The notes: generated by a model not told the origin, from the letters alone. DNA of 40,464 nucleotides from an uncultured Gemmatimonadota bacterium (GCA_964584035.1 CAZOYL010000006.1:1-40464); one strand, 5' to 3'; numbered from the stretch's first letter, positions 2,207 to 36,111 are shown. Made by a program: numbers and translations.

Positions 2207-3088
2207 TCAGCCCAATTTATAGGTAAATCCCAGTGAGAGGGTTTGCTTGAAACGCCCCCCCTTATCCACTTCCTTGTCGTAGAGAAGCTGGTTGTAAAGA
2301 TTCACCATCAGATACTTGGTGATACCGACGGTCAGGATGTTTTCCCAGTTGACGTCCGGAGATTTCCAGTAATCCGCGTTCGGCTGCCCTTTGAGCTCAT
2401 CCGATTTCGAGGAGAACAGCGCCTGGAAGACGGTCAGCTTGTTGCTAACCGAAATCCTCTCGCCGGCCAGGGGCGATTTCAGCTCGCTGACGAACTCGAT
2501 GCCGCCATCATTGGAGGTCTGCGTCTGGCGTTGGTCCGTATCGACGAGAACGTCGCGATCGACGAACTGCCTCAGCGCGCCGCCCAGGCGGGTCGACCAC
2601 TCCCGCTTGTCCTCTTTCATCAGGTAGCGGATGACACCGAAACTCTCGGTGAATTTCAGGGGATTGAGATAACGGCCCTTCGCCGGATCACTGGCATCCA
2701 GAAACTGGCTCTCCACATGGCCGGCGGCGAAGGGATCCACAAATCCGCCCAGCGTGAAATTGAAAAGCGTCTCAAAATCTATCAGGTCCGTCGATTTCTC
2801 CGGGCTGGCCCAATCCTTCGAATCCGCATCTTGACTGTGCGTTTGCCCGAACGAGAGCTTGAGGGCATTCTTGTTATGAATGAGGGGCTGAAGCTGCTTT
2901 TCGGCCAGCCAATTGGAGTTAAAAGCCCAGGTGATGTTGCCGGCTTCCCCCCCGACCCAATTATTACTGTAGGCCGTCTGAGCCAGGGTCAAATTGACAT
3001 CCGCGGTCAGAGTCCACGGATCCGCCGTGGAGACCGGCGGGCAGCAGCACAGGGCCGCAATGGCGAGAGCAGAAGCGAACCTCTTCAT
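2207..3088 (-). CDS. DUF3078-like outer-membrane beta-barrel protein
   Basis: Signal peptide, 'QTAYSNNWVGG', 'KSTDLIDFE', 'YDKEVD..RFKQTLSLGFTYKL' with an amphipathic terminal strand. Confidence 0.75.
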   Translation of the reverse strand: MKRFASALAIAALCCCPPVSTADPWTLTADVNLTLAQTAYSNNWVGGEAGNITWAFNSNWLAEKQLQPLIHNKNALKLSFGQTHSQDADSKDWASPEKSTDLIDFETLFNFTLGGFVDPFAAGHVESQFLDASDPAKGRYLNPLKFTESFGVIRYLMKEDKREWSTRLGGALRQFVDRDVLVDTDQRQTQTSNDGGIEFVSELKSPLAGERISVSNKLTVFQALFSSKSDELKGQPNADYWKSPDVNWENILTVGITKYLMVNLYNQLLYDKEVDKGGRFKQTLSLGFTYKLG

Positions 3089-3218
3089 GATCGCCTCCCT
3101 TATGAGAGCGTAAAACGGATTGAACGGCCGTCAGAAAGAAACTTGATACAGAGATCGATCATCAAATACTTGGTGATATCGGCCGTGAAATCACTTCCCC
3201 TTTTTTACAAAAAAACGA

Positions 3219-3251
3219 TAAACAAAGGGCGGACACATGGAGTCCGCCCTT
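3219..3251 (-). terminator. intrinsic terminator after the sigma gene
   Basis: Stem AAGGGCGGAC / GTCCGCCCTT (3225-3251) followed by a T-rich run on the minus strand. Confidence 0.7.
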
Positions 3252-3302
3252 GAAACGATAGAAGCGTCCATCTTTTTCCCGCAGCCGGCAAGGAACGGCC
3301 CG

Positions 3303-4133
3303 TTACTCGAGATACGGCCTCAAAGCCCTGCTGCGGGAAATGTGACGAAGCCGCGAGATGGCTTTATTGCGGATCTGGCGTACTCGCTCGCGGGTCAGGT
3401 TCATCCGGTCCCCGATCTCTTCCAGAGTCAGGGAATCATCCCGGTCGATGCCGAAATACAGCCTGATGACCTGCGATTCACGGCCCTCCAGGGTCGACAG
3501 ACTGTTCTTGACCTGAGAGATGAGACTATCCTTCCACAGGCTGCGGTCGGGAGACGGCTGGCTGTCATCCACCAGCAGACTCTTCAGATCCTCCTTGCTG
3601 TCATCTCTCAAAGGCGCATCGAGCGACAGGTAAACCTTCGACAGGGCCAGGGTGCTGGACACGTTCTCCTCTTCCGTGCCCAGCTTTTTGGCCACTTCAT
3701 CACATTTCGGATCCCGGTGCAATTTCTGCTGCAGGCGGCTCGATTCCCGTTGAATCTTATGCAGCTGGCCGATCTTGTTCTGCGGCAGCCGAACGATCCG
3801 CGACTGCTTGGCCAGTGCCGCCAGGATGGCCTGCCGAATCCACCACACGGCATAGGAGATGAACTTGAAACCCTTGGTGCCATCGAAGCGCTTGGCCGCT
3901 TCGATCAGGCCGACATTGCCCTCGGCCACCAGGTCGGCCAGTGAAAGGCCCTGACCCTGGAATTGCCGGGCAACGCTGACCACGAAACGAAGGTTCGCCT
4001 CCACCAGTTTTTTCAGGGCCTCGCGATCTCCGCTTTTGATGCGCCCGGCCAGTTCAGCCTCCTGCTCGGCCGTAATAAGTGGCAGATCCTGCAGATCCCG
4101 CAGATACCGTTCGAAAGCTTTGCGATCATCCAT
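3303..4133 (-). CDS. RpoD/SigA-family sigma-70 factor, short form without region 1.1
   Basis: 'LVEANLRFVVSVA', 'DLVAEGNVGLIEAAKRFD..KGFKFISYAVWWIRQAI', region 4 'TLEEIGDRMNLTRERVRQIR'. Confidence 0.95.
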   Translation of the reverse strand: MDDRKAFERYLRDLQDLPLITAEQEAELAGRIKSGDREALKKLVEANLRFVVSVARQFQGQGLSLADLVAEGNVGLIEAAKRFDGTKGFKFISYAVWWIRQAILAALAKQSRIVRLPQNKIGQLHKIQRESSRLQQKLHRDPKCDEVAKKLGTEEENVSSTLALSKVYLSLDAPLRDDSKEDLKSLLVDDSQPSPDRSLWKDSLISQVKNSLSTLEGRESQVIRLYFGIDRDDSLTLEEIGDRMNLTRERVRQIRNKAISRLRHISRSRALRPYLE

Positions 4134-24855: not shown

Positions 24856-26253
24856 ATGAAGAAACTTGTCATGGCACTGATCATGGCGGCCGTTGCAATG
24901 TCCTGGATTTCCAGCGTTGCTGCCTTTGAAGAAATCGGCAACCGTCCTTCTCGGCAGGCACATGTTGAGGTGTGGCTCAACAAGCACAACGGTTCGGTCT
25001 ACCGGCCCGGTCAGGTCGTAAGAGTCTACTTCCAGGCCGACTCGGATTGCTATGTCACCGTATACAATATCGACGCCGAGGGCTTTGTCAATGTGCTCTA
25101 TCCCAAGTACGACGATCAGGCCTGGGTGGAGGGAGAGCAGATCTACGAGATCCCCGATCCCTATGACGACTATGATCTGGTCGTGGATGGGCCCAAGGGC
25201 ATCGAATACGTGGTCGCGGTGGCATCGGAATTCCCGCTAAATCTTCGGGCCGTCTATGATATCGAGGACGGAGTGGACAATGAGTTCTACTGGCCCATGG
25301 GGCGCGTCACCGGCGATCCCCATCTGGCCATCAACGATATCAACGAACGGCTGGCCTGGGGCAATGAGGAATACGAGCCGGAAGGGTATTCCAGCGATGT
25401 CGGCTGGTTCTATGTCCAGGAATGGGTTCCCTATCCGCGGTATATCGTCTATCAATGGTATCCGGAATATATCTACGATCCCTGGTGGGACCCTTACGTC
25501 CACGTCCATATCTGGACCGATTTCTACTGGGATCATTACTGGTGCCGTCCCTGGTGGTGGTGCCGCGGCTGCCAGCCAGTCTATGTTTACTGGTACATCG
25601 ATAGAGATTCCGGCCGCCGCGTGACCTGGAAGGGGGATTACCACAACGATCGTCGAAAACCTGACTGGTATCGCGAAAAACCCGTCAGGCGCAGCGGCGG
25701 TGTCGAGCGACCCTCCCGCGACGACGAGAACGGACGCGGTGCATGGGAGAATCGCCGGCGGTCGCCATGGGGCGATCCGGGCACCGATGCGGAGGAAATC
25801 AGGACAAAAGCTCAGGGCAGAGAATCAGTCGATCTGGAACGGAAACAGCGGGAAGACCGCCAGGACGATACCGGGAGGATCGCTGCCGAGAGGGACGCCA
25901 GAAACAGATCGACCGATCTGAACAGAGAGACCAGATCTGCCAGCCGTTCCCGGCAAGAGATTCGCACTCCGGAGTCGTCGGAGAAAGCCAGGTCTCAGGA
26001 GGCCATCCGCACACGGAGCTCACGGTCCAGCGAGACGAAGAAAGTGGAAAAACAATCCAAACGAAGCTCCACGATCGGTAAAATCTTCGGCGGGGTGGCC
26101 AAGATCTTCACCGGAGACTCCAAGAAGAAAAGCAACAGTTCCTCGAAAAAATCGAAAAGCTCCGATTCCGGGAGCAGCCGTTCGAAGAGCAGCTCCAGCA
26201 GCCAGGACCGCAGTTCTAAAAACAGCTCCAGCAGTGAGAAAAAAACCAAGTGA
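24856..26253 (+). CDS. DUF4384 protein with a Y/W/P-rich segment and basic low-complexity tail
   Basis: Signal peptide; 'VWLNK..VYRPGQ.VRVYF..DCYVTVYNIDAEG.VNVLYP', 'GPKGIEYVVAVAS'. Confidence 0.8.
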   Translation: MKKLVMALIMAAVAMSWISSVAAFEEIGNRPSRQAHVEVWLNKHNGSVYRPGQVVRVYFQADSDCYVTVYNIDAEGFVNVLYPKYDDQAWVEGEQIYEIPDPYDDYDLVVDGPKGIEYVVAVASEFPLNLRAVYDIEDGVDNEFYWPMGRVTGDPHLAINDINERLAWGNEEYEPEGYSSDVGWFYVQEWVPYPRYIVYQWYPEYIYDPWWDPYVHVHIWTDFYWDHYWCRPWWWCRGCQPVYVYWYIDRDSGRRVTWKGDYHNDRRKPDWYREKPVRRSGGVERPSRDDENGRGAWENRRRSPWGDPGTDAEEIRTKAQGRESVDLERKQREDRQDDTGRIAAERDARNRSTDLNRETRSASRSRQEIRTPESSEKARSQEAIRTRSSRSSETKKVEKQSKRSSTIGKIFGGVAKIFTGDSKKKSNSSSKKSKSSDSGSSRSKSSSSSQDRSSKNSSSSEKKTK

Positions 26254-26354: not shown

Positions 26355-26747
26355 TTACGCGGGCTGCTGAAAATCCTCGACGATCTTCTTAAGCCCACCC
26401 TTTACGAAAGACACCATGATAGACCGGCCCTTCTTCGATTTCTTCCCCTTCTGCAGGACCAAACCGTAATCATCCCATACCGAATGGTAAAAGACCTGGC
26501 CGATGTCGTAATTTTCGCTCATGTTATACAGCGGCACATTATCGGTATCGACCGTCCCGAGAAACTCCTCATCCAATCCCATCGTCTCTCGGGTCGATGT
26601 GGAAACATAGGGCACATACCCTTCGCAATCAGGACACTGAAGCCAGGTCACCTCTTCGTCCGGCACTTTCCGGATCATATCCATTTTAACGACTCTCTGA
26701 CAGATCGTGCAGAAATGAGATTTTCTCCGTTGCGCACTTGATTTCAC
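26355..26747 (-). CDS. Zn-ribbon plus SH3/Tudor-like hypothetical protein
   Basis: CTIC...CPDC, then 'Y...ENYDIGQVFYHSVWDDYGLV...IMVSF...GLKKIV'. Confidence 0.7.
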   Translation of the reverse strand: MKSSAQRRKSHFCTICQRVVKMDMIRKVPDEEVTWLQCPDCEGYVPYVSTSTRETMGLDEEFLGTVDTDNVPLYNMSENYDIGQVFYHSVWDDYGLVLQKGKKSKKGRSIMVSFVKGGLKKIVEDFQQPA

Positions 26748-26889: not shown

Positions 26890-27879
26890 CTATTTTCCCT
26901 GGGGCGTGATCATGCGTATGTTCACCACACCTTGTTCTCCGTCGCTCGCCAGCAGATACTTACGCATCTTCGGCAGAATATCCTCCATGGTCTCCAGGTA
27001 CAGCCGGGTCTCGGTCACCTTTCGGTTTTTGACATACTCCCGCATCAGAGAGAGGAAACGCTCGGCCTCTCCCCGGGCTCGATTGCTCCGTTCGGTGCGA
27101 TAGGCTTCTGCCTGTCGAATCATCTGCTGGGACTGTCCGCGCACCTGCGGCAATTTCTGATTCCGATAGCCGTGAGCTTCGTTGATCAGGCGGTTCCGGT
27201 CCTCCCGGGCGCTGGTCACGTCGCGAAAGGCGTAAGCCACCTCCTCGGAGGGACCGATGTCCTGGAAATAGGTCCCGGAAATCTGCAACCCGCAGCCGTA
27301 GCGATCTAAAATTTTCTGTGTTTGATCTTTCAATTTATCCTCTATCAGAAGCTTATCCGTCGTCAATACCTGATCGACGCCCATCGATCCGATGATCGAT
27401 GTCAAACAGGACTCGGCCGCCTTCCGCACCAGCCATTGAGGCTCTTCCATCGAAAATATATAGGCGCTGGGATCCTTGACCCGATATTGAACGATCATCT
27501 GCATATCGATGATGTTCTCGTCACCGGTCAAGACCTGAGTTTCCTCCGGCAGCGGACCGATCCCCTTGACCTTATCGACCATACGGAATCCAACGCTCAT
27601 CACCTTGACCTGTAAGGTCTTGGGGCGATCGACCCGCTCCATAGGCCAGGGCAGATGATAGTGAATGCCGGGCATGACCTGATCATTCACCAGGCGGCCG
27701 AAGCGGCGTACCACACCCTGTTCGTTGGGCTGAACGACGTACACGCCCGAAAGCAGATACAGGAGGAATATGGCCAGGGTTCCAAAGAATACGAGTTTCC
27801 GCCAGGGGGGCCACACCGCCCTGATTTGCTGGAACAGCGTTCTGGAATCGTCGGAGACCGGTTTCAGGTCGGCCGTCAT
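26890..27879 (-). CDS. hflK: HflK (SPFH family)
   Basis: One TM; 'EQGVVRRFG', 'LTGDENIID', 'AFRDVTSARED', 'ARGEAERF', 'VTETRLYLETME'. Confidence 0.92.
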   Translation of the reverse strand: MTADLKPVSDDSRTLFQQIRAVWPPWRKLVFFGTLAIFLLYLLSGVYVVQPNEQGVVRRFGRLVNDQVMPGIHYHLPWPMERVDRPKTLQVKVMSVGFRMVDKVKGIGPLPEETQVLTGDENIIDMQMIVQYRVKDPSAYIFSMEEPQWLVRKAAESCLTSIIGSMGVDQVLTTDKLLIEDKLKDQTQKILDRYGCGLQISGTYFQDIGPSEEVAYAFRDVTSAREDRNRLINEAHGYRNQKLPQVRGQSQQMIRQAEAYRTERSNRARGEAERFLSLMREYVKNRKVTETRLYLETMEDILPKMRKYLLASDGEQGVVNIRMITPQGK

Positions 27880-27881
27880 CG

Positions 27882-28769
27882 CTATTTCCTTACCTTCCCT
27901 TCGGTGAGCAGCTCGAGAAGTTCGGAATCGGTTGATAAAACAATCGTGGTCTTCTCGTTGAGTACCTTTCGGTAGGACTCCAGGGTCCTGACCAATTTAT
28001 AAAACTGCGGATCTTTGTTATGGGCGGCGGAATAGATCTGAGCCGCCTCTGCCTCGCCTTTGCCGATGATCTTTTGTGCTTCTTCATAAGCCTCGGAAAG
28101 AATGGCGCGGCTTTCCTTGTCCGCCTCGGCCCGTACTTTCATGGCCTCTTCTTCACCCTCGGAACGGTATTTTTTGGCCATTCGTTCCCGCTCGGTGCGC
28201 ATACGCTGAAAGACGCTCTCCTTGTTCTGATCGGGAAGGTTCAGCCGTTTCAGGCGCACCTCCAGGATATGAATGCCATATTCCTCGGCGGCTTTTTGAC
28301 GACATTTTTCCGTGACCCCCCCCATAATCTCATCCACTTTGATCTGCTCGGGATCGACGGAGATCAACGCAGAAAGCGGGTAATTCCCCAATGCGGCTCC
28401 CAAGGATGCTGAGGTGATATCGGCCAGGAATATTTCGGCCACCGGACGTTCCTTGACCGCTTCAAGAAATTTCCTCGGCTCGCTGATGCGCCATCCCATA
28501 TAGATATCGACCAGTATATTCTTCTTGTCTTCGGTGAGATACTCCCCGGGCTCCGGATCGAACAGCAGTAATCTCCGGTCAAAACGTCGCAGCGATTGAA
28601 TTGGATCCGGCCATTTGACGTGCAATCCCGCGGATTCAATCACCCGCACCGGCTTGCCGAATTGCGTGATGACGGCAAATTCTGTCTCGTCGATCTGAAA
28701 AAAAATCGAGCCGATGAAAATAATGAAAAAACCTGTTAGCAGGAAACCGAGAATGATCTTTCTTTTCAT
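27882..28769 (-). CDS. hflC: HflC (SPFH family)
   Basis: 'AVITQFGKP', 'LTEDKKNILVD', 'VFQRMRTERER.A..YRSEG', 'DPQFY...RTLESY'. ATGA overlap with the upstream gene. Confidence 0.93.
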   Translation of the reverse strand: MKRKIILGFLLTGFFIIFIGSIFFQIDETEFAVITQFGKPVRVIESAGLHVKWPDPIQSLRRFDRRLLLFDPEPGEYLTEDKKNILVDIYMGWRISEPRKFLEAVKERPVAEIFLADITSASLGAALGNYPLSALISVDPEQIKVDEIMGGVTEKCRQKAAEEYGIHILEVRLKRLNLPDQNKESVFQRMRTERERMAKKYRSEGEEEAMKVRAEADKESRAILSEAYEEAQKIIGKGEAEAAQIYSAAHNKDPQFYKLVRTLESYRKVLNEKTTIVLSTDSELLELLTEGKVRK

Positions 28770-30496
28770 CGTTCCTCCAGCGTGAGAATATCTTCTTTTG
28801 CTCCTTTATCGAAACCTTGATCGTAGCCTTTACTGAAAAATCTCAAATCGACCGGATCATGGGACGCATCCGGTTCGACGATAAATTTCTCCAATTCCGG
28901 CATCATTTCATCCACCATCTCGAGAAACAACCGGATCTCGGTTACGGTTCGAGCCTGCTGATATTTCCGCAGAAGAGCCACAAACCGTTCTGCCTCTCCA
29001 CGGGCCCGATCAATGCGCTCTTTATGATCGGCCTCTGCCTGCCGTATCTGCTCCACAGCCTGACCGCGAGCGATCGGCAGCACTTCGTTCCGGTAGGCGA
29101 GCGCTTCATTGATCAGCCGGTCTTTATCCTCCCGGGCACTGGCGACATCGCGAAAATATTCCACGACCTCGACGGGCGGATGCACATCCTGCAGCTTTAC
29201 GGCGGTGATGCCGATTCCGCAATCGGTTCGCTCCATCGTTTTCTGCAGGCTTTTCTGAATCGTCTGTTCGACGATCATACGACCTCTGGTGAACAGGTCG
29301 TCGAGAGGTTCCGTACCGACAACCTTTCTGATGATCTCCTCGGCTGCCGAGCGCACCAGTTTCTCCGGTTCTTCCACCAGGAGAATAAATTTTTCGATAT
29401 CGATCACCCGGTATTGAACGATGGCATTGATATCGACCAGGTTTTCATCGCCCGTGAACATGACGGATTCTTCGGGCTGCTTGGAGTAGCGGCCCCGCAC
29501 ATGGCGGCTTTCCCATTGATATGATTGCGCATTCCCGGTCGTTATCTCGGCTTGGGTTCGAAAACCGATCTCCAGGCGCCTGATGGCCAGCAGAGATGTT
29601 TTCCGTACCGCCTCAAAGGGCCAAGGCAGGTGGTAGTGCAATCCGGGTTCCTGACCCGCTCGATCCACCAGCCGGCCGAAACGGAAGACCAGAGCATGCT
29701 CTCCCGGTCCCACCCGGTAAAGACCGTTTCCCGCCCAGAGGAAGAATCCCAGAAGCAAGAGACCGATCACGAGAACGCGGCCCCGCAGCTGGAACCAGTC
29801 GATCATCCGCAATGTTTTCCGACGGGAAACCGATTCTCGCTTGGCTCCGGATCGAGTGCCTTCCAATAAGCTCGCCAGCCAGTATTCTTCCAGAAAGGTT
29901 CCCCGTAAAAGAGCCCTGACACCGCCGTATATTACCTCCAGCCCGGTGACGGCGATCAGCAGGGAGATCAAGGCAGCGGCCTGGACGTCCAGGTTCAGGC
30001 CGACCATGGCTCCCACCAAACCGATCAACACTCCGACGGAGGAATACATATCCATTCGCGAGTGGTAACCATCGGCTATCAGGCTGTTGGAATGTTTCTC
30101 CTGTCCAACTTTAATCTTCAGCCTGGCGATGAATCCGGAAACCAGTATGCAGAAGAAAACGCCGATCATGGCGACCGGCAGATGCATCAGTGTCGTGGAT
30201 GATCCCTGAACCGTCCCGGTGAAGATCTCAACGGCGGCTCCCAGTATGAAGAAACCGACCACGACGGCGATCACATCCTCGATCTTCCGGAAAAGGACCG
30301 CTTTTCGTCGGATACCTCGAGCAGCCAGAACGAGACCGCTGAGCACCAGGATCGATACGAAGATATCGGAGAGAGAGTGGATGGCGTCAGCCAGAATGGC
30401 TTTACTGGAGGACCATCGAGCCAGCAGCAGCTTCAGGACCACCAGAATCACATTGGCGATGACGGAAATGATGGCAACGCGAATCTTTAGATTCAT
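28766..30496 (-). CDS. cation diffusion facilitator TM domain fused to HflK
   Basis: N-terminal CDF: 'S.AILADAIHSLSD' and 'SLIADGYHSRMD'. C-terminal HflK: 'MFTGDENLVD', 'VKLQDVHPP', 'FRDVASARED', 'ARGEAERF'. Confidence 0.9.
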   Translation of the reverse strand: MNLKIRVAIISVIANVILVVLKLLLARWSSSKAILADAIHSLSDIFVSILVLSGLVLAARGIRRKAVLFRKIEDVIAVVVGFFILGAAVEIFTGTVQGSSTTLMHLPVAMIGVFFCILVSGFIARLKIKVGQEKHSNSLIADGYHSRMDMYSSVGVLIGLVGAMVGLNLDVQAAALISLLIAVTGLEVIYGGVRALLRGTFLEEYWLASLLEGTRSGAKRESVSRRKTLRMIDWFQLRGRVLVIGLLLLGFFLWAGNGLYRVGPGEHALVFRFGRLVDRAGQEPGLHYHLPWPFEAVRKTSLLAIRRLEIGFRTQAEITTGNAQSYQWESRHVRGRYSKQPEESVMFTGDENLVDINAIVQYRVIDIEKFILLVEEPEKLVRSAAEEIIRKVVGTEPLDDLFTRGRMIVEQTIQKSLQKTMERTDCGIGITAVKLQDVHPPVEVVEYFRDVASAREDKDRLINEALAYRNEVLPIARGQAVEQIRQAEADHKERIDRARGEAERFVALLRKYQQARTVTEIRLFLEMVDEMMPELEKFIVEPDASHDPVDLRFFSKGYDQGFDKGAKEDILTLEER

Positions 30497-30534
30497 AGGC
30501 TGGGAGAAGGGTGGAAAGTGAGACCTTTCATTTT

Positions 30535-30563
30535 ATTGTAACACGAATCTGTAGTGAATGCAA
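30535..30563 (-). promoter_or_regulatory. putative sigma70 promoter of the CDF-hflK/hflC/hflK operon
   Basis: TTGCAT-17 nt-TACAAT in an AT-rich intergenic region. Confidence 0.65.
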
Positions 30564-30721: not shown

Positions 30722-33205
30722 TCAATGCTTCTGTTTTTCCTCAACACGCTGCAACCTGAGAAGATAGCCCCTGCCCGGTTCCAGCTGTAAAAACGGTCGA
30801 TAGCCCATGATGCGCCCCTTGTGCGGAATCTTCAGGATGGCGCATTCTCCCTTCGAGGATTTCTGCAGCAGGTCATGAACCCGATAGCGGCCCGCCTCCA
30901 GAAGCGAATGATTGATCCCGATGGTATAGTCCTCCACGGGCTGGTTCGACAGATTGATGACCACCAATATTGGATCGGCGCCGTCGGCATACCGTAAGTA
31001 GGCGTAGATATCCCCATCGCCGGTCATCAAATCTCCGTAACTGGCCTGCTCCTGATCATCCCGGGCCGTCAGGGCGGGATATTGGGAACGCAGTTCGATG
31101 AGCCGGCGATACCAGTTGAACAGAGAGCCTGGATCCGTCCTCTGATCATAGACCCGCTCCCACTCCATAGGAGCTCGGATGGCCTCATCAGGCGGATTGG
31201 TCCCTGTCATGCCGATCTCCTCGCCGTAATAGATCAGGGGGGTTCCCGGAAGAGTGAGCAACATCAAGGCCGCCAACTTATTGAGTTCTTTATCTTGATC
31301 CAGAGCACTGAGAATACGGTCATTATCATGATTGTTCAAAAAACGACACAGCTGGGCCTGGAGGGGAAAGTCGTCCTTTTCCTTCTTCAAAATCTGGCGC
31401 ACATCGACCTTCTCCCCTCCTGCCATCAATTTCAGCAGAACATAATAGAGGGGATAATCGAATTGCATGTCGAATTCATAATCGAAGTACCCGTAAATGG
31501 TCTCCACATCATCCCAGACCTCTCCCAGGAGAAGAACATCGGGACGCACCTTCTTCAGCTCCTGCCGTAGCTCCTTCCACCAATCGTGCGGCGGGCCCTT
31601 GGCGACATCCAGGCGATATCCATCCACGCCGTCGGAAAAATCGCCATCACCGTTGGGATCCATCCAGAACCTGGCCATCTCCAGCAGCCAATCCCGGAGG
31701 TCTCGGGAATCAAAATTGAATTCCGGCATCCCCTTATAACCGAAGAAGGAATCATATTCGATCTGTTCCGGATCGAGAAACTTGAACCATTCCGAATACT
31801 CCGAGTCGGGATTGCCCAGGGCATCCTGAAAGAAGGGATGACGATCGGAGCAATGATTGATCACCAGATCGAAGATCACCCGGATACCGCGGCGATGGGC
31901 CTCACGGCATAGCGTGAAAAAATCTTCATTGGTGCCGTAGTCCTCCTCGATGGTGAAATAATCGGTGACATCGTATCCGTGATAGGACGGTGATTGGCAA
32001 ACGGGCATCAGCCAGATGGCCCCGGCACCCAGGTCGCTATCGCTGTCCGGATCGCCGTCGTTGAGATAATCCAACCGCTCGATGACGCCCTGAAGGTCAC
32101 CGACACTGTCTCCATCGGAATCATGAAAGCTGCGCACGAAGATCTCGTAGATGACGGTGCGGTCATAATAGTCCGGGGAATCGAAGACGGCCGGCTCACG
32201 ATCCATGGTAAAATCAATCCTGGTGTCGCCTCGCTTTCCGGAGGTGAGCCCCATGGCGGAGATCACCAGGCGAAAGTCCAGATCCGGCAGGTCCTCCGGC
32301 AATGAGGCGCGAAACCGTCCGGTCCGATCCTGGTAGTCATGCTGGAGCACCTGTCCCCCCAGCCGGATCTCAATGCTCCCTGGATCCACCTGATCTTTAT
32401 AACAGCGCAGCTCCCCGGATACCGGCTCGATCTTCCGGGGGCGGGATTTGTCGGTGGGAAAATCCATGACGGCGTATGGCACGCCGGGCTCGGCTACAAA
32501 AACCACGCCGTTATTAAAATTGGATGCGTCGGTCTGCGGGGCATTGGGATCGGTGATCCACTGACCGTCGACGACGAATTTGTACTGATAGGATCTTCCG
32601 GCGCGAAGAGGATACCGGGTGCGCCACAGGCCGTCGCCGTCCTCATCGAACATCGGGGTGGCGCGCATGGACCAGCCGTTGAACTCCCCGGCCAGATAGA
32701 CTGCCCTGGCGCCCTGGGGAGCCCGATGGGAGAACAGGACTCCGCCTTCGACGGGATGCGGAGCCAGCTCATCGTCTTCCGACCAGGGGATATCCGACCG
32801 CGGTGCAGAGACATTTTCGGGAGGATCTATCCCGACATAGACGATCCCGTTATCGAAATTCTCATAGTTGATGCCGGGAGCATGCGGATCGGTGATCCAC
32901 AGACCTCCATCCACCACGAATTTATATTCCCAGCGCCCGCTGGGCAGGGGAACGACCACCGTCCAGATACCGTCGCTGTCCTCATCGGCCATGGGGGTGG
33001 CGGCCACATCCCAGCCGTTGAAATCTCCGGCCAGCATCACCGATCGAACCGGCTCGTCGGGCCGGTAAGAAAACTGTATGCCTCCTTCCACCGGTCGGGG
33101 CGCCAGGGTTGGCTCAGCGACAACCGGTGAGGCCCACAGAAACACGACCAGAAACGGGACGATCAGGAACCGTTGATACGGAAAATGTGCATATGAGCAA
33201 CCCAT
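30722..33205 (-). CDS. exported GH13 alpha-amylase with two N-terminal CBM48-like domains
   Basis: Two 'LAG(D/E)FNGW...YKFVVDG.WITDP' modules; 'SPSYHGYDV', 'DLVINH', 'GYRLDVAK', 'GEVW', 'NHDN'. The ATG overlaps the pullulanase stop (TGATG). Confidence 0.93.
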   Translation of the reverse strand: MGCSYAHFPYQRFLIVPFLVVFLWASPVVAEPTLAPRPVEGGIQFSYRPDEPVRSVMLAGDFNGWDVAATPMADEDSDGIWTVVVPLPSGRWEYKFVVDGGLWITDPHAPGINYENFDNGIVYVGIDPPENVSAPRSDIPWSEDDELAPHPVEGGVLFSHRAPQGARAVYLAGEFNGWSMRATPMFDEDGDGLWRTRYPLRAGRSYQYKFVVDGQWITDPNAPQTDASNFNNGVVFVAEPGVPYAVMDFPTDKSRPRKIEPVSGELRCYKDQVDPGSIEIRLGGQVLQHDYQDRTGRFRASLPEDLPDLDFRLVISAMGLTSGKRGDTRIDFTMDREPAVFDSPDYYDRTVIYEIFVRSFHDSDGDSVGDLQGVIERLDYLNDGDPDSDSDLGAGAIWLMPVCQSPSYHGYDVTDYFTIEEDYGTNEDFFTLCREAHRRGIRVIFDLVINHCSDRHPFFQDALGNPDSEYSEWFKFLDPEQIEYDSFFGYKGMPEFNFDSRDLRDWLLEMARFWMDPNGDGDFSDGVDGYRLDVAKGPPHDWWKELRQELKKVRPDVLLLGEVWDDVETIYGYFDYEFDMQFDYPLYYVLLKLMAGGEKVDVRQILKKEKDDFPLQAQLCRFLNNHDNDRILSALDQDKELNKLAALMLLTLPGTPLIYYGEEIGMTGTNPPDEAIRAPMEWERVYDQRTDPGSLFNWYRRLIELRSQYPALTARDDQEQASYGDLMTGDGDIYAYLRYADGADPILVVINLSNQPVEDYTIGINHSLLEAGRYRVHDLLQKSSKGECAILKIPHKGRIMGYRPFLQLEPGRGYLLRLQRVEEKQKH

Positions 33206-36111
33206 CAATGTTCCTCCAAATGCAGCACCATGGCGCTTCTTCCCGGCACCCTGGCTTTCTTCTCCATTTTCTTCGGTCCGGTGACAACCGGTTCCGGTCC
33301 GGCCTCATCCTCATCCACCACCACGATCCAGCGTCCGGCCGGAAGGGTGAACTGGGCATCCTTCTCATTGGGATTGAACAACAGGATCACCTGTTTCCAG
33401 CCGTCTCCGGCCGCTTCCCCGGTCAGCCGATAGGCGATGCAGCGCGGCGGAACCGGTAGTCCCAGCTGATCGTCGAAGAACTCGAGGTTCTCGACAACCT
33501 CCTGCCGGGACTTCATGCGAAAGACGGGATGCTGTTTTCTCAACGAGATCAAGCCCCGGTAGTACTCGAAGACATCGCGGTGATCCACCTTCCACTGCCA
33601 GCGGATCATATTGACGGCATCCGGCTTATTATAGCTGTTCTCATCTCCGCCTTTGGTCCGCAGCATCTCCTGGCCGGAATGCAGAAAAGGGATCCCCTGA
33701 GAGGTCAACACCAGGACGGCGCCCAGTTTGTCCATCCGGATGCGATCAGCATCATCCACATCGGCCCGGTTCCGGGTGGTCAACAGCAGCCGGTCCCAGA
33801 AGGTATGATTATCATGGCAGGCGGCGTAATTGATGACTTCCAGGGGACTGGCGGCGAAATCATTGATGCTGCCCTGGATGCCTTTCTTGATCCGGTCGAT
33901 GTTGATGCCCGTCTGCACGTAGCCGGGATTGAGGTCGAAGACGCCGCCCTTGATGGCGTCCCGGAAATGATCGCCGAAAACGGCAAAACCCTTTCCCCTC
34001 TGCATGCCCTTGACCGTAGGCGTGATGGGCGTCTGTCCTCCGGTCCAGGGCTCACCGTGAATCAGCAGATGAGGGGCGATGGCCCTCAGCCTCCGGACGA
34101 TCTGTTCCATGGTTTCCAGATCGATGAGTCCCATGAGATCGAAACGGAAACCGTCGACCTTGTATTCTCTGACCCAGTATTCCACCGAGTCGAGGATGAA
34201 TTTCCGCGCCATGGGGGCCTCGGACCGGAACTCGTTGCCCGTTCCGGATCCATTCCAATAGCTGCCGTCTTCCTTCAGGCGATAGTAGTAGCCTGGAGTC
34301 AACCCATTGAAACTGAAGACCTTCGACGGGCTGGTCTCGGCCGTGTGGTTGTAAACCACATCCATGATCACCCTGATGCCCCGGCGGTGAAGAGCATCGA
34401 CCAGCTTTTTGAACTCCTCCACCCGGGCCGGTCCATGAACCTGGGTGGCATACCAGCCGTCGGGAGAGTTGAAGTGTACCGGCATATAGCCCCAGTTATA
34501 CTCCTGGCTCCTTTCGTCGTTCTCGAAATCCTGAACGGGCATGATCTGAACGGCATTGACGCCCAGCTCCACCAGATGGTCCAATCCCGTCCTGACCTCC
34601 GGATGATCGGGCATGACGGTGCCCTCCTCGGCGAGGCCGAGGTACTTTCCCCGGTGCCGGATGCCGGAGTGCTCATCGATGGTGAAATCCCGGATGTGCA
34701 GCTCATAGATGACGGCCTCATCGATCCCAAAACCGGGCCGGTCGGCCACCGGCGTCTCATCGCTCAGGATCATACCGCGGCCGTCATGAGCGGTATTGCA
34801 GCGCGAGTAGGGATCGATGATCTCCCGGCCGGGAATGAATCCGGGGGCGTCACCATCGACCTTGAAGGTATAGTAGAGACCGCCAAGATCCTCGGCCAGG
34901 ACGATCTCCCAGAGTCCCCTGTCGGCCGGAGCCATCTCCACGATCCGGGGGCTTCCGCCCTCGGGCTGCTCATAGAGCAGGGCCGTTAGCCGGGAGGCGG
35001 TGGGAGCGAACGCGCGCAGCGTCGTCCGGCCCTCCGAGATCACGGCGCCCATCGGCCGGTTGGACGTATACTCGGGACCATCCAGAAGCCCGCGGACGGT
35101 CAGTCTTCCGGGGCGGTAACCCTGGGCCTCGATGATGAACCGATCCAGCCGGTCGGCGGCCAGATCGAAGGGCCGGGCCACCCGCAGTTGGATCTCGGAG
35201 CTGGCCGCCGCGGCAGGCGGATGGGCCACCGCCGTCAGGATGGTCACTTCCCGGCCGGAAGCATCCCGAAGGGTGAAGTTCTGTGGAACAATCTGCTCCG
35301 CTTTCATAGACCGGGAAAGGGAAACGGTCACCAGATCGGAAGCATCCACGAATCCCCCGCGCACCCAGGGTGAGATGTCCGGCCGCTCGGCATACAGTTC
35401 CGGATCGCCGCTGACGATCCAGACCTCATCCCCCAGGAAGGGAAACCAGATCCGGTCGGGCGCATCCTTGTCGGCCCAGTTGCCGTATTTGGGCAGGACG
35501 CCGATCTGCCGGCCGTCTCCGTAATTTTCCTTGGTGACCACAAAGACCATGCCGAAATCATCCTGTTGCTCCTCCCGCAGCTCCTGAGAACCGCCATCGG
35601 TCTTGTCGTTCCAGGTCCATAGGGTCCATCCTCCATAATCTCCCTCGGAACGATGGTAATGCACTGTGAACTGCGGCGCGCCCCGATCCTCGGCCAGCGC
35701 CGCTTCCGGCCGCTCGGCGAGCAGCCGGGGATACCCCCCCAGGATCCAGACCTCTGCACCCATGTCCGGGGTCCACATCCGATCCGGGGGATCCTTGCTC
35801 TCCCAGTCGCCGAATTTGGGTAACAGGCCGATGGAGCTCCCGTCGCCATACCGGGAGAGGTCCAGGTGAAACACCAGGCCATCGGCGCCCCGATCGACTG
35901 CCTGGATCTCCTGAGAATCCCCGTCGGCGGCATCGTCCCAGGTCCACAGGGTCCAGCCGTCGTACCGGCCGTCGGATCGCTGGTAATGAACGATCAATGT
36001 CGTTTCGTCAGCCATGGCTCCGCGACTCGATGGGGTCACCAGGATCAGGCAGGATGCCAGCATCAGCCCAAAAATGAAAAAACCTGTAAGGGACGATACG
36101 CCTTTGAACAC
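33205..36111 (-). CDS. pulA: type I pullulanase (GH13) with two N-terminal PUD/CBM41-like domains
   Basis: Two 'VHY.R..G.Y.GWTLWTW' modules; 'YNWGYMP', 'DVVYNH', 'GFRFDLMG', 'GEPW', 'HDN'. Confidence 0.93.
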   Translation of the reverse strand: MFKGVSSLTGFFIFGLMLASCLILVTPSSRGAMADETTLIVHYQRSDGRYDGWTLWTWDDAADGDSQEIQAVDRGADGLVFHLDLSRYGDGSSIGLLPKFGDWESKDPPDRMWTPDMGAEVWILGGYPRLLAERPEAALAEDRGAPQFTVHYHRSEGDYGGWTLWTWNDKTDGGSQELREEQQDDFGMVFVVTKENYGDGRQIGVLPKYGNWADKDAPDRIWFPFLGDEVWIVSGDPELYAERPDISPWVRGGFVDASDLVTVSLSRSMKAEQIVPQNFTLRDASGREVTILTAVAHPPAAAASSEIQLRVARPFDLAADRLDRFIIEAQGYRPGRLTVRGLLDGPEYTSNRPMGAVISEGRTTLRAFAPTASRLTALLYEQPEGGSPRIVEMAPADRGLWEIVLAEDLGGLYYTFKVDGDAPGFIPGREIIDPYSRCNTAHDGRGMILSDETPVADRPGFGIDEAVIYELHIRDFTIDEHSGIRHRGKYLGLAEEGTVMPDHPEVRTGLDHLVELGVNAVQIMPVQDFENDERSQEYNWGYMPVHFNSPDGWYATQVHGPARVEEFKKLVDALHRRGIRVIMDVVYNHTAETSPSKVFSFNGLTPGYYYRLKEDGSYWNGSGTGNEFRSEAPMARKFILDSVEYWVREYKVDGFRFDLMGLIDLETMEQIVRRLRAIAPHLLIHGEPWTGGQTPITPTVKGMQRGKGFAVFGDHFRDAIKGGVFDLNPGYVQTGINIDRIKKGIQGSINDFAASPLEVINYAACHDNHTFWDRLLLTTRNRADVDDADRIRMDKLGAVLVLTSQGIPFLHSGQEMLRTKGGDENSYNKPDAVNMIRWQWKVDHRDVFEYYRGLISLRKQHPVFRMKSRQEVVENLEFFDDQLGLPVPPRCIAYRLTGEAAGDGWKQVILLFNPNEKDAQFTLPAGRWIVVVDEDEAGPEPVVTGPKKMEKKARVPGRSAMVLHLEEH

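Follow-up and report, generated by a model that had tools for sequence, protein, structure and literature searches.

A metal transporter domain fused to HflK at the head of a conserved three-gene cluster related to HflK/HflC

Why should a subunit of an HflK/HflC-type assembly carry a metal transporter at its N-terminus? The question is raised by a locus in a 40,464-nucleotide stretch of DNA from an uncultured Gemmatimonadota bacterium (GCA_964584035.1 CAZOYL010000006.1:1-40464), referred to here as the window, in which a gene joining a cation diffusion facilitator (CDF) transporter to HflK is followed by genes for HflC and for a second HflK. HflK and HflC of Escherichia coli form a cage with a stoichiometry of 12+12. 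An initial annotation of the window, made from the sequence alone, had proposed that the three genes encode a paralogous cage organising a metal transporter rather than a protease. The transporter-bearing HflK is called K1, the plain second HflK K2, and the gene order K1-HflC-K2 the triplet; window coordinates are positions in the whole stretch and residue numbers refer to the 576-aa CDF::HflK protein. Judged from sequence, a paralogous transporter-bearing HflK/C assembly is the best-supported reading of the locus, and it appears to extend to a family with three types of exporter.

Three minus-strand open reading frames (ORFs) of 576, 295 and 329 aa fill positions 26890-30496:

28766..30496, minus strand: K1, the CDF::HflK fusion gene, 576 aa (ORF, Pfam, NCBIfam, structure model and Foldseek)
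27882..28769, minus strand: HflC of the triplet, 295 aa (TIGR01932, 203.9 bits against a cut-off of 134.4)
26890..27879, minus strand: K2, the plain second HflK, 329 aa (TIGR01933, 247.3 bits; inside the K2 clade, support 97)

The tight coupling described in the initial annotation was borne out when the junctions were read letter by letter. At the sequence cgATGAaa the TGA stop codon of K1 lies within the ATG of HflC, giving a 4-bp overlap, and at TAGcgATG the HflC and K2 genes are separated by a 2-bp gap. All three products exceed the NCBI equivalog cut-offs for HflK (159.4 bits) or HflC (134.4 bits).

The domain structure of K1 was examined using Pfam, NCBIfam and structure prediction. Pfam placed Cation_efflux at residues 9-197 (91 bits, cut-off 26.6) and Band_7 at residues 261-465 (71.8 bits), and the NCBIfam HflK model TIGR01933 matched residues 260-543 with 208.9 bits (cut-off 159.4). 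The NCBIfam CDF model TIGR01297 gave 101.2 bits (cut-off 82.35) over profile positions 3-203 of 285 only, indicating that the CDF C-terminal domain is missing from K1; the Pfam scan gave no match to ZT_dimer (PF16916) at E<=0.01. The AlphaFold2 (AF2) model, with a mean predicted local distance difference test score (pLDDT) of 74.5 and a predicted template modelling score (pTM) of 0.42, contained six helices within residues 3-198, a linker with pLDDT <50 at residues 200-231 and a seventh helix at residues 239-256; the SPFH fold comes next, then a coiled-coil helix of 70 residues, and strands end the chain. Foldseek matched the C-terminal ~320 residues to E. coli HflK (7vhq_E, E=2.3e-17, 31% identity) and the N-terminal half to YiiP (8f6h_B) with a root-mean-square deviation of 3.6 over 201 columns. 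The features of K1 from the N-terminus, all on the minus strand, are:

29903..30496, minus strand: CDF membrane domain, residues 1-198, six helices, no cytosolic C-terminal domain (Pfam, AF2, Foldseek)
30365..30379, minus strand: site-A motif HSLSD in transmembrane helix 2, residues 40-44 (H40 and D44, both invariant in alignment A1)
30050..30064, minus strand: site-A motif HSRMD in transmembrane helix 5, residues 145-149 (H145 and D149; sequence and alignment)
29783..29902, minus strand: predicted cytoplasmic linker, residues 199-238, with 8 Lys/Arg (Lys/Arg count, low pLDDT)
29723..29782, minus strand: seventh membrane helix, HflK's own anchor, residues 239-258 (AF2 and sequence)
28769..29722, minus strand: HflK-type SPFH domain, coiled coil and C-terminal strands, residues 259-576 (TIGR01933, Foldseek)
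29501..29521, minus strand: K1-specific loop YQWESRH, residues 326-332 (alignment)

The predicted outward-facing loops of the CDF part (residues 30-31, 98-105 and 165-168) contain no Lys or Arg and the linker contains eight, which argues that both termini of the CDF part face the cytoplasm and that the seventh helix carries the SPFH domain to the periplasm, as in HflK. The initial annotation had deduced that the usual cytosolic domain is replaced by a linker, a membrane helix and an SPFH domain, and that six helices plus one would put the latter in the periplasm; the profile matches and the AF2 model agree with the first statement, and the AF2 model and the Lys/Arg counts with the second.

The two HxxxD motifs recognised at the outset are present as HSLSD and HSRMD, and the site is retained in other fusions. 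Of 114 fusions, 105 have the quartet HD-HD at site A and 6 have HD-HN, and in 3 the quartet is different or interrupted by gaps. The HD-HD form is the one regarded as zinc-type in CDF transporters. D37 is kept in 113/114 fusions and D142 in 114/114, and the conservation of the site-A residues looks like a sign of selection on transport residues. The K1-specific loop has W328 and H332 in 114/114 fusions and E329 in 110/114. It reads Y(Q/E)WESRH in K1 proteins of the CDF type and YEWNxQH in a second type, in which HflK is fused to a metal ATPase; it is absent from K2 and from canonical HflK, and K1 of a third type, fused to an SO_0444-family protein, also has no YxWE/N..H loop. The loop is modelled by AF2 with low confidence, and its role may be contact with the transporter or with the exported ion.

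The CDF::HflK fusion is real and old. Both Pfam domains were found in 117 of the 120 best homologues listed. In a scan of one genome per species, 39 loci matched over nearly the whole protein and 38 of these contained a closed CDF::HflK ORF, the 38 genomes belonging to several phyla and including two archaeal ones. The lineages given in the record titles are Zixibacteria, Eisenbacteria, Tritonobacter, Nitrospiraceae, Hydrogenedentota, Actinomycetota, an uncultured archaeon and an Altiarchaeales archaeon. Within the phylum of the window the fusion occurs in 4/4 genomes of the window's family and 0/3 of the other family, and matching places link the window's family to Zixibacteria SM23_81. The gene order is also conserved. 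HflC comes after the fusion in all 35 loci with enough DNA to assess, and K2 follows in 32 of 34 assessable loci, so that the pairing of a transporter-bearing with a plain HflK, proposed from the window, is a conserved one; K2 is missing only from L045 and L050, which are the archaeal loci. A plasmid of the cultured Aquibium oceanicum B7, conjugative and complete in sequence, encodes a 515-aa CDF::HflK with both Pfam domains, the only full CDF::HflK among 72,556 plasmid records. A match on a Tistrella plasmid was rejected as a fusion, being a canonical hflK-hflC pair. In addition, a contig of an independent assembly (run X1) bridges the domain junction at 29397-30357; run X1 may be the window's source sample, and the contig therefore adds little.

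The triplet also occurs with other metal exporters in place of the CDF. When longer relatives of K2 were sought, 94 proteins were obtained at E<=1e-10, all of them transporter fusions: 88 with a P-type ATPase, 4 with ArsP_1 and 2 with a CDF. The fused ATPases are of the P1B heavy-metal type (TIGR01525, 592 bits against a cut-off of 346), and the ArsP_1 proteins belong to the SO_0444 Cu/Zn efflux family (NF033936, 373 bits against a cut-off of 300). The CDF, P1B and SO_0444 families are exporters from the cytoplasm. A CPC motif before DKTGT (in transmembrane helix 4) and no CxxC in the first 90 residues were found in 80/80 ATPase fusions longer than 900 aa, and Pfam identified no HMA domain in the two ATPase fusions scanned, indicating that these ATPases, like the CDF, are without the usual cytosolic metal-binding domain. 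The ATPase fusion is followed by HflC and K2 in L053/L168 and in L169. It is rare in Acidobacteriota: of 101 genomes sampled, only 2 had a full-length copy, and the centre genome was itself one of these; nothing stated here depends on G035 and G060, two unpublished genomes in the sample. The SO_0444::HflK fusion was found as 25 ORFs in metagenome contigs. Of the 22 loci that could be assessed, 21 have HflC after the fusion and one (L095) has nothing recognisable downstream; K2 was seen in 18. The same search with HflC gave one protein only, with Band_7 only, a weak hint that transporters are carried by the K subunit alone. This sole long relative of the triplet HflC, P0358 (613 aa), is possibly an HflC-HflK read-through.

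The ATPase::HflK and SO_0444::HflK triplets thus appear to be sister systems of the CDF::HflK triplet, newly recognised here. They have in common the K1-HflC-K2 order, orthologous K2 proteins and K1 types that group together; the transporter module differs, with a related loop motif in the CDF and ATPase types. Databases label the ATPase and SO_0444 fusions just 'HflK' or 'Cu+-exporting ATPase'. The occurrence of three unrelated exporter families on one HflK design suggests an unstudied scaffold dedicated to metal handling. Some SO_0444 loci show further variation. In L099, L103-L106, L108, L110, L112, L113, L118 and L131 an extra HflC-like Band_7 gene lies 1-2 kb upstream of SO_0444::HflK (for example L106:1788-2777 and 2880-3914), and in L106 an acetamidase/formamidase-family gene stands between the two; the SO_0444 cassette may be larger than three genes. 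Split or decayed forms of SO_0444::HflK were also seen, as separate adjacent ORFs in L132:1608-3480 and in several frames in L111:155-2310.

The relationship of the triplet to canonical HflK was examined with a tree of 115 rows, a random subsample of 241, computed using IQ-TREE in quick mode with Shimodaira-Hasegawa-like approximate likelihood ratio (SH-aLRT) support only. The rows comprised 29 CDF-K1, 21 ATPase-K1, 4 SO_0444-K1, 2 truncated K1, 26 K2 and 25 HflK from canonical pairs, with 8 HflC serving as the outgroup. One clade (SH-aLRT 96) held all 82 rows of triplet HflK and excluded all 25 canonical pair HflKs. K2 formed one clade (SH-aLRT 97) that includes the K2 of the ATPase loci L053 and L068, and K1 of all three transporter types formed a group of 54 rows with support 81, while the two archaeal K1 branch apart. 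A FastTree analysis with the plasmid proteins added gave the same groups, with Aquibium K1 and K2 falling in the K1 and K2 groups, and in neither tree did the triplet HflKs fall within the clade of canonical hflK-hflC pairs. Most simply, these trees would reflect a single ancient duplication that gave K1 and K2, followed by the exchange of transporter modules on K1. The window's genome itself holds a canonical hflK (279.5 bits) with an adjacent hflC on contig C24, a copy that falls outside the triplet clade in the tree, and a separate canonical pair is also present in Zixibacteria SM23_81 (G002) and a Hydrogenedentota genome (G004). As placed by the trees, then, the triplet is a paralogue of canonical HflKC, as the initial annotation had supposed, and it is not the only hflKC set of its genome. 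Of the two conditions that the initial annotation had named as refuting its idea, an artefactual fusion and the absence of any other hflKC genes, neither refutes it for this genome. The operon in the window contains no ftsH, again as first described; FtsH-like matches in the window's genome lie on contigs C194 and C80, both cut at contig ends.

The CDF module was compared with its own relatives. The best named NCBIfam equivalog for this part of K1 was MamB, at 73.7 bits, far below the cut-off of 350. Fused length was found for 76 of the 150 best representatives for the CDF part. When 42 of these hits were scanned (40 of <500 aa and two longer), 32 proved to be unfused CDFs that keep ZT_dimer, 17 of which have an added Nitro_FeMo-Co domain (P0266, P0271, P0287 and 14 others); no named equivalog was matched by these nearest unfused relatives. 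The combination of Cation_efflux, ZT_dimer and Nitro_FeMo-Co, in proteins of ~400 aa, is thus frequent in those unfused CDFs that stand closest to the fused one.

The surroundings of the fusion are heterogeneous. In 9 of the 38 loci, a Tritonobacter locus among them, the gene immediately upstream on the same strand is feoB, with gaps of 3-21 b in seven of the 9 and with feoA before feoB in at least 4. The Aquibium plasmid carries a copper and envelope-folding island with at least an HMA P-type ATPase, four PCu(A)C, two SCO, CopC, CopD and Nramp genes, together with at least DsbB, thioredoxin-domain genes and a two-component system. A gene for a parvulin-type isomerase stands before the fusion in L039 and L041, and in Aquibium one stands after the triplet. 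The pair gyrB-gyrA lies upstream in ~16 Eisenbacteria loci, a synteny taken as uninformative, and the triplet of the window is flanked by an amylase gene upstream and a gene for a small 4-Cys protein downstream.

When the triplet was compared with known systems, each resembled it in part. The E. coli HflK/HflC-FtsH complex (PDB 7VHQ, 7WI3, 9CZ2, 9PAW) has the same N-in anchor helix, periplasmic SPFH domain, coiled coil and adjacent hflC. K1 differs in the six-helix CDF before the anchor, and the triplet in having two HflK paralogues per one HflC, in showing no ftsH, hflX or hfq context and in coexisting with a canonical pair elsewhere in the genome. With the CDF transporter YiiP/FieF, K1 has in common the six-helix fold and the HxxxD + HxxxD site A, and it differs in being without ZT_dimer. 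A literature search found no publication on metal exporter::HflK fusions, and the accessible part of Hinderhofer 2009 contains no mention of 'cation', 'transporter' or 'ATPase'. The closest published parallel, as far as the accessible portions of the reports go, is the PA2434-PA2439 region of Pseudomonas aeruginosa, where a P1B metal ATPase and three HflK/HflC-family SPFH genes also lie in one metal-regulated locus (PMC4542158, PMC8531726, PMC11761036). The genes hmtA (PA2435) and PA2437-PA2439, annotated as HflC/HflK family, are described there as up 5.6- to 14.4-fold on Zn depletion (PMC4542158), Zur as shifting the PA2439 promoter in an electrophoretic mobility shift assay (PMC8531726) and the hmtA-locus proteins as rising in Zn-depleted cells (PMC11761036). 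In that locus the genes are separate, HmtA is called an importer, and the likeness to the triplet is one of published description only. Other scaffolds around transporters are more distant. According to the accessible text of PMC9374683, the PacL1/CtpC metal efflux platforms of Mycobacterium tuberculosis also cluster and stabilise a P1B exporter in membrane foci; PacL1, however, is a small DUF1490 protein and not SPFH, the foci are flotillin-independent and there is no covalent fusion. Eukaryotic stomatin cups (PDB 9ZD2, AQP1-stomatin) are described in the available part of PMC13724742 as SPFH oligomers that likewise bound a membrane patch with channels and transporters, being, in contrast, non-covalent, on the cytosolic face, homo-oligomeric and eukaryotic. 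For E. coli HflKC itself, the accessible text of PMC12005517 describes FtsH-related and respiration phenotypes.

We consider it somewhat better than an even chance (probability about 0.55) that the triplet encodes a paralogous HflK/HflC scaffold whose K1 subunit carries a working divalent-metal exporter at its cytoplasmic N-terminus. The six CDF helices of K1 would lie in the inner membrane, joined by the ~40-residue cytoplasmic linker to the HflK anchor helix, and the SPFH domain and coiled coil would stand in the periplasm, assembling there with HflC and plain K2 into an HflK/C-like ring or cage. Such a scaffold would hold several exporters at one laterally bounded membrane patch and would stand in for the lost cytosolic CDF domain as holder or regulator of the transporter. 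K2, by occupying HflK positions without a transporter, would set the number and spacing of transporters. A metal of the Zn2+ or Fe2+ class bound at the HD-HD site would be carried out of the cytoplasm and emerge on the periplasmic face, at the assembly or within it, and the neighbouring genes would suit a role in local envelope metal handling or delivery more than bulk detoxification. The ring geometry, the metal and independence from FtsH are all presumed in this scheme.

Several points weigh against this scaffold-and-exporter reading. The co-assembly of K1, HflC and K2 is suggested by gene order and by homology to E. coli HflK/C, the supposed direction of transport is taken over from the behaviour of the families, and the accessible part of PMC4542158 describes HmtA, a P1B ATPase encoded beside HflK/C-family genes in P. 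aeruginosa, as an importer. The CDF part lacks the domain that normally mediates dimerisation, no metal regulator adjoins the operon in the window, and the neighbourhoods are heterogeneous, with gyrB-gyrA in Eisenbacteria and an amylase gene in the window. In the tree the support for the K1 group is only moderate and several rows have long branches, making deep placements unsure. Finally, in two of five other genomes checked, G001 (Acidobacteria) and G003, no further hflK scored above the cut-off and ftsH is present elsewhere, so that the triplet may also serve FtsH there; and in the Altiarchaeales genome (G005), which has the fusion and HflC and shows only AAA-domain matches to the FtsH model, with no FtsH above cut-off, the genome size of ~1 Mb makes that absence weak evidence.

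These last genomes bear directly on the alternative that the triplet is still a modulator of FtsH, its cage enclosing FtsH as in E. coli and the exporter being a passenger, an FtsH-controlled client or a coupler of proteolysis to metal status. This is fairly unlikely, even though K1, K2 and HflC pass the NCBI equivalog cut-offs, the fold of K1 is closest by Foldseek to E. coli HflK from FtsH complexes, and in G001 and G003, which have ftsH, no hflK other than that of the triplet scored above the cut-off. Against it, canonical pairs persist separately in the window's genome, G002 and G004, canonical HflKs lie outside the clade of triplet HflKs, ftsH was never beside the triplet in the loci read, G005 (a small genome) has no FtsH above the cut-off, and FtsH modulation leaves unexplained why three different metal exporters, and exporters only, are fused. 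A further possibility, which we regard as doubtful, is that K1-HflC-K2 forms a closed, protein-walled chamber on the periplasmic face, a counterpart in protein of the magnetosome or ferrosome lumen. Tethered exporters would fill this private metallation or storage compartment, used when metal is scarce and without FtsH, and the W-E-x-x-H loop of K1 would receive the exported ion; the part concerning scarcity is drawn from the co-operonic feoAB genes and the Zur-regulated Pseudomonas counterpart.

It is improbable that the system instead serves metal scarcity outright, with a transporter that imports or senses metal and a scaffold that stabilises it when metal is limiting. The three transporter families are exporters by established knowledge and by their NCBIfam names. 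In favour of the scarcity reading stand the feoAB uptake genes, co-oriented and nearly abutting in 9 loci, and the likeness to the Zur-regulated hmtA locus, the genes of which are reported, in the accessible parts of the sources, to be induced by Zn depletion and the proteins to be up in Zn-depleted cells. The Pseudomonas proteins, however, are likened by published description and not placed by sequence in the K1, K2 or HflC clades, and induction under scarcity would equally fit export that supplies envelope metalloproteins. The initial annotation had itself raised the possibility of a read-through or assembly artefact absent from other genomes. The window does come from a fragmented genome of 279 contigs, but an artefact, or a decaying gene, is exceedingly improbable given that 117 of the 120 best homologues listed have both domains, that closed ORFs occur in 38 genomes from several phyla and one on a complete plasmid of a cultured strain, that the X1 contig crosses the junction and that the metal-site residues are conserved.

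The effect of an SPFH cage on the membrane proteins it encloses has been a long-standing question because clients are usually found by pull-down only. In the triplet the exporter has been written into a scaffold subunit by evolution, so that the client is known and the effect of the scaffold on it becomes directly measurable. The paralogous transporter-bearing assembly points to an unrecognised and phylogenetically wide form of spatial organisation of metal export, and may help to account for the as yet unexplained HflK/C-family genes of the P. aeruginosa Zur regulon. The system can be tested in a cultured host, Aquibium oceanicum B7, which carries the triplet on its conjugative plasmid.

The remaining observations concern other features of the window. 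The initial annotation had placed a promoter ahead of the three genes, and a promoter-like site lies there:

30530..30558, minus strand: promoter-like site TTCACT-17-TAAAAT, 34 b 5' of the K1 ATG (9/12 consensus matches, weak)

The site is only a weak match, however, and its presence is not above chance, four sites of that quality being found in the region against 3.1 expected. The two large glycoside hydrolases encoded directly upstream of K1 on the same strand, at 30722-36111 (minus strand), have no obvious connection with the triplet; one is an amylase in which CBM48/AMPK1_CBM modules are duplicated, the other a pullulanase containing PUD domains. Within K2, at 27505-27750, the summed contig depth was ~three-fold higher in all four runs, with loose ends at 27527 and 27703; this is a conserved stretch of the HflK gene common to contigs of other organisms. 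The 4-Cys gene at 26355-26747 (minus strand), 143 b downstream of K2 and on the same strand, encodes a 130-aa protein with a CxxC...CxxC pattern and no Pfam match. A 58%-identical counterpart occupies the same place after K2 in Zixibacteria SM23_81 (L024:9663-10100), and in L014 the corresponding place is taken by a 145-aa ORF. Beyond it, at 24856-26253 (plus strand), lies a gene whose 465-aa product has a DUF4384 domain and, after it, a long low-complexity tail rich in Arg, Ser and Lys.

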